From Escherichia phage EK99P-1: a stretch of DNA of 44,332 nt. The position numbers and the translations under genes are program-made. The stretch lies in the sequence record NC_024783.1; one strand, 5' to 3'. The notes under the pieces were generated by a model. It saw only the letters and a list, made by a program, of their open reading frames with translations, ran no database searches and was not told where the DNA came from. This document shows positions 25,424-32,380 of the stretch, piece by piece; position 1 is the stretch's first letter, and each line of letters starts with the position of its first letter.

Positions 25424-25653
25424 TTCAATTCCTCAATAAGGGTGTATCGGGCGCTGCGCGCGGTGTAAGAGTTGCACACGAAATGACAACGTCGGGTAAT
25501 GACAAGCCACCCGGTAAGGTCCATACCCAGGAGGTGTTCAGGCCGTGACACGCGACGCACACGATCGCGGCGCGGGTCAATGTTATAGTCTTTTTGCATT
25601 TGGTCTACGACCGCGTGGTCGCGGTCAACGATTAAGATATTCATGTAGCTCAC
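25420..25653 (-). CDS. hypothetical protein
   Basis: 77 aa, overlapping junctions with both neighbours. Confidence 0.4.
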   Translation of the reverse strand: MSYMNILIVDRDHAVVDQMQKDYNIDPRRDRVRRVSRPEHLLGMDLTGWLVITRRCHFVCNSYTARSARYTLIEELK

Positions 25654-26110
25654 TCTCGCTCATTATTTCAATTTGTGCGCTGCCGCTGGGCGGCGCTTCG
25701 TCAAAGATTATCAACTGCTGGCACTTGTTATTGCTCGGCCCGACTTCACCGGTTACAGCGTGTATAAATCGGATACGCCAGTCCAGAAGAATTATCAGGT
25801 TTGCAGTCTTCCGGGCCAGCTTTGCCCACTTCGTCGACGTGTCCTGATTCAGCAGCATGACGGTCCGGCGTCCGTGCGCTGCGCACTTGACCCACGGCAG
25901 CGGATCGGAATACGGCGGGTTGCACCACTTCCACCCTTTCAACTCAGACCAGTCCGCATCGAGCGCGCTGTGCTCTGCCGTGAAGTAACGCGGTAGCAGG
26001 TGGTTGGTGTCGCTTGCCGCCATATCGTAACGGAATCGGTACTTACGGCGCAGCGGTTTAAATAAAGCTGGCGGCGTGCGCCAGCTATCTTTTTGCTCAC
26101 TCTTCTGCAT
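25625..26110 (-). CDS. DNA N6-adenine methyltransferase (small phage Dam type)
   Basis: 161 aa with WRTPPALF and catalytic NPPY motifs. Confidence 0.8.
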   Translation of the reverse strand: MQKSEQKDSWRTPPALFKPLRRKYRFRYDMAASDTNHLLPRYFTAEHSALDADWSELKGWKWCNPPYSDPLPWVKCAAHGRRTVMLLNQDTSTKWAKLARKTANLIILLDWRIRFIHAVTGEVGPSNNKCQQLIIFDEAPPSGSAQIEIMSESELHEYLNR

Positions 26111-26555
26111 GATCTGGATCTATCGCGTACAGGGCAATTTTCTTATTACTGTTTAGAACGCGTTGCACGCGCTTTGATTCCTCGGTGCCGAGTGGTCGGC
26201 AGTCGGAGTAGTAAGACCCGTTCCCTCGCCACGCAACCAGCACCAGGTCTTTCCGGTCAATCTTAGACTGGCGGCCCTTCGGACGCACGTACTCCTCGGC
26301 CCGTTTGCAATGTTCACGCAAACCATCGGCAGTGATGCGGTTTAGTGCAACGCTGGTGGTGTATCCGGTGCGCTGCATAATCCCCATCAATTCGAATAGC
26401 AGTTCGAAGCGCTCCTCTAGCTCCTGGCGCACTTTCTTCTCCCCTTCATATAGCGTCTGGTTGGTGTCCGCCAACGCGTTCGCACGTTCGGCCTGTTCGC
26501 GGGCTTCGAGGCATTGCGCGGCCCAGTAGTTTTTCTCTTCTTGTAAAATTTTCAT
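26097..26555 (-). CDS. hypothetical protein
   Basis: 152 aa, charged coiled-coil-like N-terminus. Confidence 0.45.
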   Translation of the reverse strand: MKILQEEKNYWAAQCLEAREQAERANALADTNQTLYEGEKKVRQELEERFELLFELMGIMQRTGYTTSVALNRITADGLREHCKRAEEYVRPKGRQSKIDRKDLVLVAWRGNGSYYSDCRPLGTEESKRVQRVLNSNKKIALYAIDPDHAEE

Positions 26556-26878: not shown

Positions 26879-27202
26879 TTACGCATAAAAATTTGGGTCG
26901 CGCGCTACGTCTACCAGATACAGGTTACTAATGCGGTTGCCGTAGTGCCCAGGCGTGCGCTGGCGGCACACAACGGCGAATCCTGGGGGGATTGTATTGC
27001 CTGTCTCAATAATCCACGCCACGCGCGCGCCCGACAGCGTCTTGCCGTTGCACTCGATGCGCGTGCCGCCATCGGCAGTGTTAAGGTTGCCAATCTTGCA
27101 GCCTGTGGACTTCAGGCGAATGACGCCGGTCTTGCTGTCGTAGGAAAAAAGCTGATTGGTCATTGCCACTGAAAAGTCGATGGCTTCGAATGTAGTATTC
27201 AT
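26879..27202 (-). CDS. hypothetical protein (possible degenerate HNH/NUMOD-like fold)
   Basis: 107 aa. The C-terminal GHYGNRISNL is only weakly HNH-like. Confidence 0.35.
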   Translation of the reverse strand: MNTTFEAIDFSVAMTNQLFSYDSKTGVIRLKSTGCKIGNLNTADGGTRIECNGKTLSGARVAWIIETGNTIPPGFAVVCRQRTPGHYGNRISNLYLVDVARDPNFYA

Positions 27203-27909
27203 TTTAAATTTTCCTCGTTAACCGCTATCGCGAAGCCGCGCGGGGTGAGTGAGTGGATTAATTTTGTACGAGCGGATTTACCACCGAGGCGACTATACTG
27301 CTTCGAGTACCCTTTTTCAATGAAAACAGGTTTCTTCTCTGGCATACGGAAGCCGTTGCCGGTCCATAAGCAGGTCAGCTTCGGATATGAATCGCGGGCG
27401 TTGATGTATTCCGGGAAGAGCGGGTGTACGTCATCCTCCGGCAGATATCCCCCATACTCCCACGGGTTGAATGAGTGATCCGGCTTGCGCCACTGGGTGG
27501 AAAGCACACTGCGCGGATTCTCAATCATATATGGCACTTCGAAGAAGTCACCCAGGTAAGCGGCGATCTTCGCGGTGCGCACCGCCTTAAGCTGAAAGGC
27601 TGGGTCTTTAGCCCGCTTGCGCGGGAAAGCTGGCGCACCGCTCACTGCCAGATCCGTACACGGAGGGAATGCATAGATGATATCCGGCGTACCGAAATCG
27701 CCATTCATCGCGCGGTCTACAAAGTCCAGATCGATAAACTCATTGCGATACCGGATTCCGCGACCATAAATCCGGTAGTCAAGGTAAGACCCGTGATCGG
27801 CTTCGGAGTAGTTGAAGCAATAACACTTATGCCCCATCTCGGCAGCACGCTCAATCATCAAGCCGCTGCCGTCAAACAACGACCAGATTGTCATTTTAGC
27901 AATAGTCAT
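27199..27909 (-). CDS. C5-cytosine DNA methyltransferase-like protein (compact)
   Basis: 236 aa with LFDGSG (motif I-like), FPPC (motif IV-like catalytic Cys) and ENP (motif VI-like). Unusually short for a C5-MTase. Confidence 0.5.
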   Translation of the reverse strand: MTIAKMTIWSLFDGSGLMIERAAEMGHKCYCFNYSEADHGSYLDYRIYGRGIRYRNEFIDLDFVDRAMNGDFGTPDIIYAFPPCTDLAVSGAPAFPRKRAKDPAFQLKAVRTAKIAAYLGDFFEVPYMIENPRSVLSTQWRKPDHSFNPWEYGGYLPEDDVHPLFPEYINARDSYPKLTCLWTGNGFRMPEKKPVFIEKGYSKQYSRLGGKSARTKLIHSLTPRGFAIAVNEENLK

Positions 27910-29330
27910 TTGCGCGCCTTTTTAGCTTTCATGTATTCCATCAGGTCGTCCTGGATATCTCGCTTACTGTCGCGACGCTCGGCGACCAATTCATCCAGTG
28001 TCCCGCGCGCCTGGATAATGTAGACGAATACCGGTCGAGGGTGTCCGGCCTGCATCTGGCGAACCGGCCCGATACGTTCAACGATCTGCGAAAAGTGCTC
28101 AAAGTTCCAGGTATCGGAGAAGATTGCCAGGTGATGTCCGCCGTCCTGCAAGTTAAGGCCGTGGCCTGCCGATGCCGGGTGTGCAAACATGATGGGGATC
28201 TCGCCCCTGTTCCACGCTTCCATATCCTTATTGCCCTGCTTACCTTTACCCAACGCAACGCCGTGCGGAAATTTCTTCTTAAGACGTGCCAGGTCATGCT
28301 TATACTGATACGCAACGAGCAACGGCGCGCCGTTCAACTCCTCCACGATACTTTCCAGCGCGTCCAGTTTGGCGTCGTGAATCTTCACCCACTCGTCGGT
28401 CCGTTCGCCGTCTTCGTCCACCTTATACACAGCGCCGGAAGCAAGCTGAAGGCACTTAATTGTCTTCGATGCCGCGTTCGCCGCTTCCACTGTTCCGCTT
28501 TCCAGTTCGGCAAATAGCTCGCTTTCAAACTGGTCGTAAATCTTGCGGGCTTTCTTCGGCAGGTCCACAACAACCGGCGTATAGATTGGCTTGTCGCACC
28601 CGAAGTATTCAGCCGCGTCAACGGTGAGGGATACATCTGACAGACGTTGTTGTATCTCTTTCTCGGAGTTCTTTAGCGGAGCGTGCTGCATAGTGAAGCT
28701 GCCAGGCTTAACAGGCTTGCTAATGAACCAGCGGTCGGTAAATGCCTTATAGCTACTGCCGAGGCGTTCGCCTCCGTCGACAAACCACGTCTGACCCCAT
28801 AAGTCTTTAAGCCCGTTTGGCGCTGGTGTGCCGGTAAGGTTAATCCAGCGCTTGACGTGTTTATGTGCAATCGCCGCCAGTGCGCGGGCGCGCTTGCTCC
28901 CCTGCTTGCTACGATAGCCTTTCAGCTTAGTCGATTCATCGGCAACAACGACCGTAAAGGGCCACGCATCGCCGTAATAGTCGACCAGCCACTCAACCAC
29001 ATCGTAGTTAACACAAACCACGTTAGCGTCGCTCTCCAGCGCTGCAATACGGTCCTTCTCCGGCCCGGTGCCGTCTACGACCAGCAGGGATGAGAACCGC
29101 CATTTCTCCTGTTCCGGGGGCCAGGTGCCGGATGCAACGCGCAGCGGGGCCAGCACCAGTACGCGGTCCTCCTGGTTTGACAGGATGCCAGTCTGGAACA
29201 TTTTATTCAGCGCCCACATTGTCGCGCCGGTTTTACCGGATCCCATTGTCGCCCATATATTGCATCGCTTATGCTTGAGGATGAACGCGGTTATCAACTT
29301 CTGATATTCGCGGCGTCGGAATCTTGCCAT
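27906..29330 (-). CDS. SNF2/DEAD-like helicase
   Basis: Walker A MGSGKTGA and DExx-like VVADEST. Start taken at the ATG at 29330 (RBS AAGGCGGA); the ORF-track start at 29420 is a GTG. Confidence 0.7.
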   Translation of the reverse strand: MARFRRREYQKLITAFILKHKRCNIWATMGSGKTGATMWALNKMFQTGILSNQEDRVLVLAPLRVASGTWPPEQEKWRFSSLLVVDGTGPEKDRIAALESDANVVCVNYDVVEWLVDYYGDAWPFTVVVADESTKLKGYRSKQGSKRARALAAIAHKHVKRWINLTGTPAPNGLKDLWGQTWFVDGGERLGSSYKAFTDRWFISKPVKPGSFTMQHAPLKNSEKEIQQRLSDVSLTVDAAEYFGCDKPIYTPVVVDLPKKARKIYDQFESELFAELESGTVEAANAASKTIKCLQLASGAVYKVDEDGERTDEWVKIHDAKLDALESIVEELNGAPLLVAYQYKHDLARLKKKFPHGVALGKGKQGNKDMEAWNRGEIPIMFAHPASAGHGLNLQDGGHHLAIFSDTWNFEHFSQIVERIGPVRQMQAGHPRPVFVYIIQARGTLDELVAERRDSKRDIQDDLMEYMKAKKARK

Positions 29331-29334
29331 GTCT

Positions 29335-29568
29335 TTATTCCGCCTTTTTCCAGACTTCTGTCTCACTGTTCCAGTTCCTTTTTGTGGCGTCGTAGTTGGT
29401 GGCGTGTCCGATGTGGACACCGGTAGCCCGGAAGCTCTTAAATTTTTGCCAGCACACCGTCAACGGCAGCGGATCATTCATGCCTGCGATAAACCATACG
29501 CGATCGCCCGGTTTACATTCGCCCAGCTTGGTTAGTCGGTAATGTTCTTTCATCGTCATGTCTCCCAA
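29335..29568 (-). CDS. hypothetical protein
   Basis: 77 aa, ends 4 nt before the helicase start. Confidence 0.4.
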   Translation of the reverse strand: MGDMTMKEHYRLTKLGECKPGDRVWFIAGMNDPLPLTVCWQKFKSFRATGVHIGHATNYDATKRNWNSETEVWKKAE

Positions 29569-29801: not shown

Positions 29802-29835
29802 ACTATACCGCTATGCGACCAATTCAGCAACCAAT
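29802..29835 (-). promoter_or_regulatory. putative sigma70-like promoter with two boxes
   Basis: Minus strand: ATTGGTTGCTG (-35 TTGCTG), 17-nt spacer containing ATTGGTCGCA, -10 TATAGT. Confidence 0.4.
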
Positions 29836-30089
29836 AAATCGCAGTCGGATATGTTGTCGATAACGCGAACGTCAGCACCGCGGCGGGCCATTCGCTCATG
29901 TTCACGTACCTGGTGCGGCTTCGGTTTTCCTCCGGGGCGCTTCACTTCGACGAAAACTATCTTGCCGTTGATGATGATAATCAGATCGGGCGCACCCGAG
30001 CGCCCCTCCCATGCCACTTTGCGGCAGAATCCGCCGACGGCTTTCACCCGTCTCATCAAGTGACTTTGAATCTTGCCTTCTGGTGTCAT
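29811..30089 (-). CDS. VRR-NUC domain nuclease
   Basis: 92 aa from the ATG at 30089 (overlaps the polymerase stop, TAATG). PD-(D/E)XK-like D...EVK core in GAPDLIIIINGKIVFVEVKRPGGKPKPHQ. Confidence 0.65.
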   Translation of the reverse strand: MTPEGKIQSHLMRRVKAVGGFCRKVAWEGRSGAPDLIIIINGKIVFVEVKRPGGKPKPHQVREHERMARRGADVRVIDNISDCDLLVAELVA

Positions 30090-32380
30090 TATTTCCTGTA
30101 CCTGTACATAATGTCGCCTTCCGCTGCAAGCGGGAAGCCTTTCGCCCAAACCGGCAGGTCGCACATCAGCGCGCACAACTCCTCGGTTGTGTAGTCGTCG
30201 GTATCCGGCACTTCGGTTATCAGTTCATCGTGTACGGACAGTACGATCTCATATCCCGCAGCTTCAACGCCAGGCATGGACCATGCGAGGATATCGCGAC
30301 ACAGCGCCTGCACGATGTTTTCCGTGAGTTTGCCGCCGTAGGTGTACTGGAATCCCCACTGGCGCGTCGTCTGATTCTCACCCTGATATTTAATGCGGGT
30401 GCTGGTGCGCTTCTTGCCGGTGTCTTCGTCGATCTCGGTCGTGACAGACAGCGCGATGCCGGGGTAGCTCATGATGCGCCCCGACGGTAACTCAATTTTC
30501 AACCACCACCCCGCGGCGTTCGGACCGTCGCGCTCCTCGTCGAAGGTTGGGTCATGCTTCGCCTTCGTGCGGACTATCTTGAGCGCTTTCTTACCATCCG
30601 GGCGAACGTTCGCGCCAGCCCAGTACGCTTTGCCCGGATTGCGGATCGCGCAGAGCACCGCGTCTTCCAGTTCGGCCCAAAATGCTACCGTCTTCGGGTG
30701 CGACTCACGCCACATACGTTTGATCGCATCACACGTCAGCCATACGTTTTTCGGCAGTATATAAGTTGGGCGCTCGTCTTTCTTGCCAGGCTTCGGCGGG
30801 CGCTTAGCTTCGTTAATGCGGGCGTATTCATATCCACGTTTCGCTGCTGCCCAAATGTGATCGGGGAATGTGCCCTTCATGACGTCCGCCATCGCGTAAA
30901 GGTCGAGGCCCAGGTTTTTAGCGAACTGCAAGAACGCGGCAACGCCACCTCCATAGCCCAACCCCAATTCGCACGCCTTACCAATCTGGCGCAAGTCTTT
31001 GCGGTTGGCTTTAATGTATTCCGGGTCGAGGCCGAACATTTTACCGGCAGTCTCACAATAAATATCGCGACCGGCCCTAAATACCATTAGCGCGGTTTTC
31101 TCGCCAGCGATCCAGGCGAGGCCGCGCCCTTCCACGTTGGAGTAGTCCGCTACGACAAACTTCTTGCCCTTCGCCGGAATAATGCACCCGCGAACGGTCG
31201 AGGCCGTTAGCTTCGATATGTCATATGCCCAGTGCGCTGTCCCGCGTAACAGGGAGTTGATGCCGTTGGTGAGCATGTGCGACCGCACCCAAAAGGATAT
31301 ATCGCTCTCGCCTTCACGGCGTTTAATCTTCCCTTCGTGGTCGTCGCTATACTCGCCGCGTGCCAGGTTTTGAGGCTGGAATCCTTTACCGGCCCAGCGT
31401 AGCGTGCGCTTTGCGCCACCATACTGAAGACACCCACGGCGGCGACCATCGGCGGATAGGCCGTTAACGAGCGGATTGTACTTAGTCGATGCCGTTGATG
31501 ACGCACCGAGGCGCATTTCGATAAGCGCTTTGCCTTCGTCGGGGAAATCCGGGTCTTCAAGCAGGTCGTTAAGTGTGGATTTCTGCGCGTTGTGGATCGT
31601 GAACGCCGGGGCGATATCACGCAGGATTGGCAGGAAGTCATTGCCGGTCAGCTTACCGCCAAATCGCTCCCAGGCTTCTTCCTTCAATTCTTCCTTATGC
31701 GCCTGCACCGCTTTGATCGCGGCGTTCGCCAGGTCAACGTCCACATAGAAGCCGCGGTCGTTGATCAACTGGTCGATATGTAGGATTTCATCTTCCTTCG
31801 GAGTATTACCCCAGTCCGGTATGCGCCAGTAGACTTCACGCATTGCGATAATATCCAGCGCGGCATAGCGCAGAAATTTGGCCCATTCTTCCGGGTGAGT
31901 CTCGCGAGTGTAGCGGCGTATTTTGTAGGTCTTAGGGGTAGGCTTACAGAATCGTTTAATCAGCGCCTTGCCTGCCTTATCCTTCGCGTGCTCTGCGTCA
32001 ACGCCCAGCACCTGGCACTGCATATCGAGGCTACCCGGCAGCGCGTGGCGAAAGGCCATAATCATGGTGTCTTCGATCTGGCTTACCGGCAGGTCGATGC
32101 CCCACTTCTCACGGATAACCAGGCGGTCAAACAGGAGGCCGTTAGCCATCACTATTTTTGCTTTCTTGCGGGATACATGGCGGAGCGCCTTGCGCAGTTC
32201 ACGCGGCATTGTGGGGGATTCAGTGCAATCCCATGTCTGCACGCGGCCTTCGTCGATGGCGTAGGTGCAAATCATAATCTCGGTAGTTGGGTGTTCCGCG
32301 TAGGCGTATGCGCCCACTTTCTTCAGATCCACCCCGCTAAATGTCTCGGTATCGAGGAAAAGTCGTTCGAAGTCTTTCAT
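30089..32380 (-). CDS. family A DNA polymerase with 3'-5' exonuclease domain
   Basis: 763 aa. Exo I LFLDTETFS, motif A DYSNVEGR, motif B RQIGKACELGLGYGGG, motif C VHDE. Confidence 0.9.
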   Translation of the reverse strand: MKDFERLFLDTETFSGVDLKKVGAYAYAEHPTTEIMICTYAIDEGRVQTWDCTESPTMPRELRKALRHVSRKKAKIVMANGLLFDRLVIREKWGIDLPVSQIEDTMIMAFRHALPGSLDMQCQVLGVDAEHAKDKAGKALIKRFCKPTPKTYKIRRYTRETHPEEWAKFLRYAALDIIAMREVYWRIPDWGNTPKEDEILHIDQLINDRGFYVDVDLANAAIKAVQAHKEELKEEAWERFGGKLTGNDFLPILRDIAPAFTIHNAQKSTLNDLLEDPDFPDEGKALIEMRLGASSTASTKYNPLVNGLSADGRRRGCLQYGGAKRTLRWAGKGFQPQNLARGEYSDDHEGKIKRREGESDISFWVRSHMLTNGINSLLRGTAHWAYDISKLTASTVRGCIIPAKGKKFVVADYSNVEGRGLAWIAGEKTALMVFRAGRDIYCETAGKMFGLDPEYIKANRKDLRQIGKACELGLGYGGGVAAFLQFAKNLGLDLYAMADVMKGTFPDHIWAAAKRGYEYARINEAKRPPKPGKKDERPTYILPKNVWLTCDAIKRMWRESHPKTVAFWAELEDAVLCAIRNPGKAYWAGANVRPDGKKALKIVRTKAKHDPTFDEERDGPNAAGWWLKIELPSGRIMSYPGIALSVTTEIDEDTGKKRTSTRIKYQGENQTTRQWGFQYTYGGKLTENIVQALCRDILAWSMPGVEAAGYEIVLSVHDELITEVPDTDDYTTEELCALMCDLPVWAKGFPLAAEGDIMYRYRK

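Follow-up and report, generated by a model that had tools for sequence, protein, structure and literature searches.

The dcm gene of phage K42, a phage 95% identical to KarlJaspers (Bas06), provides the experimental anchor for the gene described here. All K42 mutants that escape the retron Ec86 disrupt this 711-bp gene, and expression of K42 Dcm was toxic only in retron-carrying cells (10.1101/2023.08.16.553469). A C82A/E128A/K175A/K176A quadruple mutant, in which K175 and K176 had been picked as substrate-binding residues by superposition on DNMT3A, was inert, and liquid chromatography-mass spectrometry detected an increase in 5-methylcytosine (5mC) in the multicopy single-stranded DNA (msDNA) of the retron with wild-type K42 Dcm but not with the mutant (10.1101/2023.08.16.553469). 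The published version of this preprint is cited by others under the title "DNA methylation activates retron Ec86 filaments...". Here, we describe a homolog in Escherichia phage EK99P-1, a Dhillonvirus whose 44,332-bp record (NC_024783.1), the window analyzed throughout, is a complete genome. With a probability of roughly three in four, a 236-amino-acid (aa) open reading frame (ORF) on the minus strand of this genome encodes a compact, orphan S-adenosylmethionine (AdoMet)-dependent DNA cytosine-C5 methyltransferase (MTase) of a phage-specific family, PHROG 757, which is the "Dcm" of T1-like, Dhillon-, rV5-like, Weber-, and Jersey-type phages.

Annotation of both the EK99P-1 protein and its family predates this work, and a homolog has been characterized. 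An exact-sequence lookup returned the RefSeq name "DNA methyltransferase" and the UniRef name "C-5 cytosine-specific DNA methylase," and the region is about 95% identical at the nucleotide level to many Dhillonvirus genomes, where the gene is called a (Dcm-like) C5 cytosine methyltransferase. New in this work are a motif map in which motif IX is kept, motif X is absent, and the variable region is reduced to 42 residues; the finding that the label "Dcm-like / CCWGG" rests on an assumption; and an R219H substitution in motif IX that is private to EK99P-1 and may have weakened its enzyme.

Sequence features of the EK99P-1 gene

The ORF listing and translation of the exact coordinates gave an ATG-initiated frame of 236 aa. 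A preliminary description of this DNA, made from the letters alone, had reported an ORF of this length with the motifs LFDGSG, FPPCTDL, and ENP, and all three were found where it had placed them.

27199 to 27909, minus strand: predicted compact C5-cytosine DNA methyltransferase gene (EK99P-1_0036, AIK68748.1 / YP_009055314.1)
27862 to 27879, minus strand: motif I, LFDGSG, residues 11 to 16, the AdoMet-binding glycine loop after strand beta1
27637 to 27669, minus strand: motif IV, FPPCTDLAVSG, residues 81 to 91, with the catalytic nucleophile Cys84 at 27658 to 27660
27514 to 27522, minus strand: motif VI, ENP, residues 130 to 132, with Glu130 as the counterpart of the ENV glutamate
27388 to 27492, minus strand: conserved family-specific segment between motifs VI and VIII, residues 140 to 174, WRKPD...PWEYGGYLPEDD.HP.FPEYI..RD
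27373 to 27387, minus strand: YPKLT, residues 175 to 179, probable motif VIII counterpart at the start of strand beta7, with Lys177 in place of the canonical Q-x-R-x-R
27274 to 27357, minus strand: remnant of the variable, or target-recognition, region, residues 185 to 212, ending in an invariant LGGKS loop
27235 to 27258, minus strand: motif IX, IHSLTPRG, residues 218 to 225 (family consensus IRSLTPRG; canonical consensus iRkLTpRE)
27253 to 27255, minus strand: codon 219, CAC (His), the substitution private to EK99P-1

The start codon overlaps the stop codon of the upstream helicase gene as ATGA, with an AAGG Shine-Dalgarno-like sequence 8 to 9 nucleotides (nt) upstream of Met1, and the stop codon likewise overlaps the start codon of the downstream gene (ATGA). 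Annotation in many relatives begins at the second Met, giving a protein of 231 aa.

Over its full length, the EK99P-1 protein is 53% identical (E = 6e-86) to KarlJaspers Dcm, the 236-aa product (QXV82308.1) of a 711-bp gene (bas06_0055 in MZ501090). KarlJaspers C82, E128, and K175 correspond exactly to EK99P-1 C84, E130, and K177. Because of this full-length identity and the matching catalytic residues, the C5-MTase activity demonstrated for a family member can be extended, as an inference, to the EK99P-1 protein. The K42/KarlJaspers and EK99P-1 enzymes share their length, their membership in PHROG 757, the spacing of the catalytic Cys, Glu, and Lys, a C-terminal block of the IRSLTPRG type, and the lack of a motif X. 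They differ in that KarlJaspers (Drexlerviridae) belongs to another phage family and carries the gene in another neighborhood, and in that KarlJaspers has KK at positions 175 and 176 and Arg at the motif IX position, whereas EK99P-1 has KL and His219; the experimental support belongs to the K42 enzyme rather than to that of EK99P-1. The earlier suggestion of a minimal MTase therefore stands for the family, in which the catalytic Cys and Glu line up with their M.HhaI counterparts and a homolog makes 5mC in vivo, and carries over to EK99P-1 as a probable activity.

Fold and profile relationships to C5-MTases

An AlphaFold2 model built from a 35-sequence alignment had a mean predicted local distance difference test score of 90.5 and a predicted template modeling score of 0.89. 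When this model was compared with the PDB using Foldseek, the catalytic domains of DNMT3A, DNMT3B, and DNMT1 ranked first (E of about 3e-7), and DNA MTases outscored Dnmt2. Structure prediction, which had been proposed as a check on the original reading, thus returned a class I MTase fold, specifically one of the C5-MTase type. The similarity to mammalian DNMT3A and DNMT3B includes a target-recognition region that is unusually small for a C5-MTase, and the K42 authors also superposed their enzyme on DNMT3A; however, identity is only 14%, and the DNMT3 enzymes retain motif X, act as oligomers that carry regulatory domains, and recognize CpG.

Profile evidence pointed in the same direction. Weak PF00145 matches covering motifs I to IV only were present in 23 of 35 aligned relatives, and four of six relatives that were rescanned exceeded the PF00145 gathering cutoff of 22 bits (22.8 to 28.5 bits). 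For profile-profile comparison, the M.HhaI reference sequence was identical to PDB 10mh, and the canonical profile was built from 80 diverse viral C5-MTases from IMG/VR; the top 120 HhaI homologs were unsuitable, being at least 71% mutually identical. The compact family aligned with 81 canonical C5-MTases using hhalign with an E value of 1.6e-4 and a probability of 50%. The only PDB sequence "match," to the kinase ToxD (E = 0.5 to 1), was noise. The EK99P-1 protein is a member of the compact family, with a C5-MTase fold and motifs equivalent to those of canonical enzymes.

Motif map of the compact family

The hhalign comparison placed motif I in register, with F12-D-G14-S-G16 opposite HhaI F18-A-G-L-G (LFAGLGG), the position where the PF00145 matches of relatives also begin. 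P83-C84 aligned with HhaI P80-C81, with identical P-C-x-x-hydrophobic-x-x-S-G spacing and Thr in place of the canonical Gln after the motif IV Cys, and E130-N-P aligned with HhaI E119-N-V. The C-terminal block I-R-S-L-T-P-R-G fell on motif IX (HhaI R272-K-L-H-P-R-E; canonical R-k-L-T-p-R-E) in the whole-protein alignment, and did so again when aligned alone (E = 0.0024), with no alternative alignment on motif X. HMMER gave weak matches to these same canonical positions in about 25 members of the family. By eye, this block resembles the GRSWSVP block of DNMT3A and the GNAVPPP block of DNMT1, which would have made it motif X; this was dropped since HH-suite and HMMER both gave motif IX.

Spacing between motifs set the compact enzymes apart from 78 canonical viral C5-MTases. 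The distance from the motif VI Glu to Lys177 is 47 residues, compared to a median of 46 from the canonical Glu to the motif VIII Arg (Arg165), and this spacing, along with the invariance of the Lys, makes YPKLT the probable motif VIII counterpart. Between motifs IV and VI, the family has 46 residues versus 38 in canonical enzymes. From this Lys to the Arg of motif IX, only 42 residues are present, compared to 77 to 217 (median, 111) in canonical enzymes, in agreement with the original remark that little room is left for a target-recognition domain. The family median from the motif IX Arg to the C terminus is 17 residues, while canonical enzymes have 31 to 53 residues to the motif X Asn and at least 14 more after it; EK99P-1 ends 11 residues past residue 225, or 17 past the motif IX Arg position.

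Two regions were less clear. The LGG loop was set by hhalign opposite the Gly-rich loop of HhaI (Y254 to G257) at low confidence, and for residues 140 to 174 the alignment to canonical enzymes was unreliable, as it was in the motif VIII stretch around K177; we infer that the 140 to 174 segment may contact DNA. Compared to M.HhaI and the other canonical PF00145 enzymes, the compact enzyme has the same order of motifs I, IV, VI, and IX and near-equal spacing between VI and VIII, but it is about 70 residues short in the variable region, has Lys in place of Q-x-R-x-R, and lacks motif X and the C-terminal helix that follows it. As judged from the ten-motif architecture used as a yardstick (PMC3404938), the family consists of a C5-MTase core that stops soon after motif IX and retains only a vestige of the variable region.

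Family size and conservation

The preliminary description had treated the ORF as an oddity on account of its length, but the family is widespread and already annotated. PHROG 757 ("DNA methyltransferase") matched residues 2 to 234 of the EK99P-1 protein (E = 9.9e-83), and tblastn located the compact MTase in 1,509 phage records, chiefly of Escherichia, Klebsiella, and Salmonella phages. A large protein collection contained 2,872 homologs, nearly all of 225 to 250 aa, and the family median length is 235 aa. An exhaustive profile search against clusters at 50% identity found 1,920 clusters with E values of 1e-3 or below and 831 with E values of 1e-10 or below; among the best 150 of the 1,920, representatives were mostly 200 to 260 aa and matched right to the C terminus.

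Residues F12, G14, G16, P82, P83, C84, T85, E130, N131, and P132 were invariant or nearly so in 134 homologs, with F12 and G16 invariant in 132 sequences and K177 present in 132 of 132. Within residues 140 to 174, the family alignment had invariant W140, R141, P149, G153, Y155, L156, D160, P163, I169, and D173, and in the loop that closes the recognition region, L208, G209, G210, and K211 were invariant. Pairwise ratios of nonsynonymous to synonymous substitution rates (dN/dS) among Dhillonvirus alleles were 0.03 to 0.07, indicating that the gene is maintained by strong purifying selection. This conservation, this selection, and the predicted fold show that the three motifs first noticed are genuine rather than chance matches.

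Some family members depart from the usual form. One 348-aa protein (P0403) carries a C-terminal HNH_2 domain (PF13391, E = 5.9e-8), and three proteins of 401 to 453 aa (P0372, P0392, and P0402) have N-terminal extensions of about 175 to 195 aa with no Pfam match. In distant members from IMG/VR contigs (L022 to L032), motif I reads YDYTG or CDRTG instead of FDGSG, so that only D...G of the glycine loop is kept, and motif IV reads PVCTD or TPCTH; ENP, the motif VIII Lys, and the R-S-x-T-P block are all retained. In addition, records labeled "Campylobacter phage" (36 in the tblastn organism tally, such as MG065655 and MG065640) and the "Streptococcus phage MBBL140" record carry near-coliphage versions of the gene. 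These lie inside typical coliphage-sized genomes, which suggests mislabeling or contamination.

Proposed mechanism and role

The activity, specificity, and role of the EK99P-1 protein itself would be as follows. The enzyme would be expressed from the replication operon, translationally coupled to the upstream SNF2 helicase. If the enzyme works as M.HhaI and DNMT3 do, the motif I loop would bind AdoMet, and the target cytosine would be flipped out. Cys84 of the motif IV PPC would attack C6 while Glu130 of the motif VI ENP and Lys177 hold the base, and the methyl group would be passed to C5 of the cytosine. The probable role is a 5mC mark on replicated phage DNA that would blunt host restriction. 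The cost would be detection by defenses that sense 5mC, as demonstrated for retron Ec86 with the K42 homolog and as may also apply to McrBC-type enzymes.

With motif X missing entirely and the variable region missing almost entirely, DNA recognition would have to rest on a few loops, which in turn makes a short recognition sequence likely. Other phage orphan C5-MTases recognize motifs of 2 to 3 nt, such as GpC (PMC8256090), making a short motif plausible for the compact enzyme as well. A bolder proposal goes further, and we consider it improbable as a whole. It holds that the compact family is a truly minimal type of C5-MTase, lacking motif X and retaining just a vestige of a recognition region, that would bind AdoMet and DNA in a noncanonical way (for example, through the 140 to 174 segment or DNMT3-like dimerization) and recognize a 2- to 3-nt target, and that R219H is a naturally selected hypomorph that would lower 5mC to evade retron Ec86 or McrBC.

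Target specificity and the Dcm label

As an alternative, the phage enzyme could be a true functional equivalent of host Dcm or M.EcoRII that methylates the inner C of CCWGG; both the "Dcm-like" annotation and the retron study assume this. A CCTGG mutation in the stem of Ec86 msDNA abolishes defense against phage K42 (10.1101/2023.08.16.553469), and CCWGG is common rather than avoided in the EK99P-1 genome (308 sites observed versus 328 expected on both strands), which fits protection by methylation, although such a count is uninformative about the target. However, the CCWGG specificity in the K42 preprint was carried over from host Dcm and was not measured there, and MG1655 without the phage enzyme had low msDNA 5mC and no retron activation (10.1101/2023.08.16.553469), even though the MG1655 strain used is dcm positive. 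Profile comparison with E. coli K-12 Dcm aligned only 25 columns around motif IV (E = 0.19). E. coli Dcm and M.EcoRII share a superfamily, a chemistry, and a name in annotations with the phage enzyme, but the latter is not an ortholog: Dcm is a 472-aa protein that is extended at its N terminus and has a complete variable region, and with only 42 residues between motifs VIII and IX, the phage enzyme lacks the Dcm recognition apparatus. Equivalence to Dcm is therefore unlikely. Our literature searches found no measured recognition sequence for the compact family, and the relaxed specificity suggested in the preliminary description is neither favored nor contradicted by these results.

Oligonucleotide statistics were tried as a route to the target site and were uninformative. 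In the course of this analysis, several 6-bp palindromes were found to be strongly avoided (observed versus expected on both strands: GGCGCC, 2 versus 44; CAGCTG, 2 versus 34; ATGCAT, 2 versus 19; CACGTG, 2 versus 16). CTAG was low (36 versus 102 expected), GATC was mildly low (328 versus 415), and GCGC was not avoided. It seems that EK99P-1 combines site avoidance with methylation.

The R219H allele and natural loss of function

The EK99P-1 frame is intact and every family-invariant residue is kept except Arg219, which is His. Position 219 is Arg in 132 of 133 family proteins, with His in EK99P-1 only, and Arg also occupies the equivalent position in each of 30 related loci, the most distant at 31% identity, as well as in 28 of 28 Dhillonvirus comparators. 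Of 81 canonical sequences, 79 have Arg at the counterpart position, HhaI R272. In the nearest alleles, codon 219 reads CGC rather than the CAC of EK99P-1, so one G-to-A transition suffices for the change, and R219H is one of only two private substitutions (with V197I) in a gene with a dN/dS of about 0.05. The exact EK99P-1 protein is on record from a single contig.

Natural loss of function of this gene also appears to exist. In a 44,705-bp Dhillonvirus contig from ENA metagenomes (L114), the homologous gene (positions 1262 to 1947) has a 10-bp deletion between motifs III and IV that shifts the frame, and the gene is called as ORFs of 68 and 148 aa; it looks like a natural loss-of-function allele. 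The 90%-identity cluster of the truncated product (representative P0017) has 24 member sequences.

These observations, together with the escape of phage K42 from retron Ec86 by dcm-disrupting mutations (10.1101/2023.08.16.553469), raise the possibility that the family is active but that the EK99P-1 allele is a hypomorph or dead via R219H, in which case it would be a gene disabled not long ago or, at most, a relic that binds DNA; alternatively, the His219 of the 2014 record could reflect a sequencing error. Such disablement could have been selected by a host defense that senses 5mC, a speculation prompted by the K42 escape mutants. This explanation is tentative, and we give it clearly less than even odds. 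Besides the intact frame and the retention of every other invariant residue, His is still able to donate hydrogen bonds, and DNMT3A-type enzymes are not known to have this Arg yet are active. Moreover, the literature searched did not establish a role for HhaI R272. The "inactive MTase-like binder" first offered among the options for this ORF is thus unlikely for the family and, via R219H, a live possibility for the EK99P-1 allele.

Several of these results, taken together, weigh against an active C5-MTase in EK99P-1. His219 occupies an otherwise invariant Arg position, and the existence of frameshifted alleles in nature means that the gene is dispensable. By sequence, neither the EK99P-1 protein nor its family has the Q-x-R-x-R of motif VIII, and the G-N-[SA]-V of motif X was found neither in the family nor in its few longer relatives, whose extensions are HNH_2 or unassigned; in other phage C5-MTases, loss of motifs VIII to X accompanied inactivity (PMC8256090). 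Pfam and NCBIfam scans returned no match for the EK99P-1 protein itself (none to PF00145 at E values of 1 or below), which is explained by its divergent sequence, and PDB sequence searches with the protein and the family profile matched no solved structure. The hhalign match has a probability of just 50% and is unreliable in its central part. Finally, the evidence for activity comes from a 53%-identical homolog, one preprint, and a quadruple mutant.

Other chemistry and other substrates

The preliminary description had also considered a pyrimidine-modifying enzyme of the same fold. For example, the protein could transfer a group other than methyl, such as carboxymethyl from host-made carboxy-S-adenosylmethionine, as CmoX does. 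CmoX enzymes, which are close structural neighbors, have S-P-P-C where the compact family has F-P-P-C, the donor is made by E. coli CmoA, and the K42 study looked only for 5mC. However, CmoX is defined by an Arg (R350) that takes the place of the motif X Asn (HhaI N304), whereas the compact family has no motif X and its conserved Arg lies on motif IX. In Oekolampad (Bas18), a 95%-identical phage, the annotation of the 19.5-kb replication region lists no cmoA or ligase partner, none was found among the eight EK99P-1 neighbors scanned, and 5mC rose when the K42 enzyme was expressed (10.1101/2023.08.16.553469). CmoX (PDB 8yf3) and the GpC-specific C5-MTases of phage TET operons are about 330 aa or longer and are detected by Pfam, and the compact enzyme is neither; those enzymes are accompanied by partner genes (CmoA, TET, and glycosyltransferases), none of which is annotated in the Oekolampad replication region. 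Such chemistry is very unlikely.

An equally slim chance attaches to a Dnmt2-like physiological substrate, RNA or single-stranded or hairpin DNA in place of duplex phage DNA. The one substrate on which a family member has been shown to act is the stem-loop of retron msDNA, and the recognition region of the compact family is very small. Nonetheless, DNA MTases scored above Dnmt2 in the structural comparison, the gene sits in a replication module with a helicase, a DNA polymerase, and a Dam-type DNA MTase, and the methylated msDNA site lies in a base-paired stem (10.1101/2023.08.16.553469).

Gene neighborhood

The minus-strand replication module of EK99P-1 encodes, in order of transcription, a family A DNA polymerase, a VRR-NUC nuclease, an SNF2 helicase, and the predicted cytosine MTase, followed by a 107-aa HNH-like ORF, two small ORFs, a Dam-family N6-adenine MTase, and an HAD phosphatase. 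Three of these genes are of note.

27906 to 29420, minus strand: SNF2-family helicase, upstream in the same operon (PF00176, E = 8.9e-11)
26879 to 27202, minus strand: 107-aa HNH/homing-endonuclease-like ORF, downstream (PHROG 99, "HNH endonuclease," E = 2.1e-16)
25625 to 26110, minus strand: 161-aa Dam-family N6-adenine MTase with an NPPY-type motif, the second orphan MTase of the replication module (PF05869, E = 2.6e-36)

The counterpart of the HNH-like ORF in Oekolampad is annotated as a "putative homing endonuclease," and that of the Dam-family gene is annotated as "Dam-like." A Pfam scan of the 107-aa ORF found no match. This ORF does not represent an unfused version of the HNH part of P0403, to which it is unrelated.

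Two other annotations in this region deserve comment. A 152-aa ORF (26097 to 26555, minus strand) has a full-length match to PHROG 10530, "DNA ligase" (E = 1.5e-97), and no Pfam match; it is far too short for a ligase, and the label looks doubtful. When called from its GTG, the VRR-NUC ORF (29811 to 30176, minus strand) shares 88 nt with the 3′ end of the DNA polymerase gene (30089 to 32380, minus strand), and the true start of the VRR-NUC ORF is probably an internal ATG further downstream.

Implications

For the EK99P-1 genome, the finding is of little import, as the gene is an orphan methylase that is annotated as a matter of routine, in a phage genus that has been well sampled. The compact family, on the other hand, is among the smallest C5-MTase architectures with experimental support for activity, and such a minimal enzyme could serve as a scaffold for targeted methylation tools. 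The family is present in more than 1,500 sequenced phages of Enterobacteriaceae, many of them candidates for therapy, and EK99P-1 has itself been used against enterotoxigenic E. coli. In these phages, the compact MTase is a likely antirestriction device and a known trigger of retron defense. The R219H allele and the frameshifted metagenomic alleles suggest that gain and loss of this gene are under conflicting selection.

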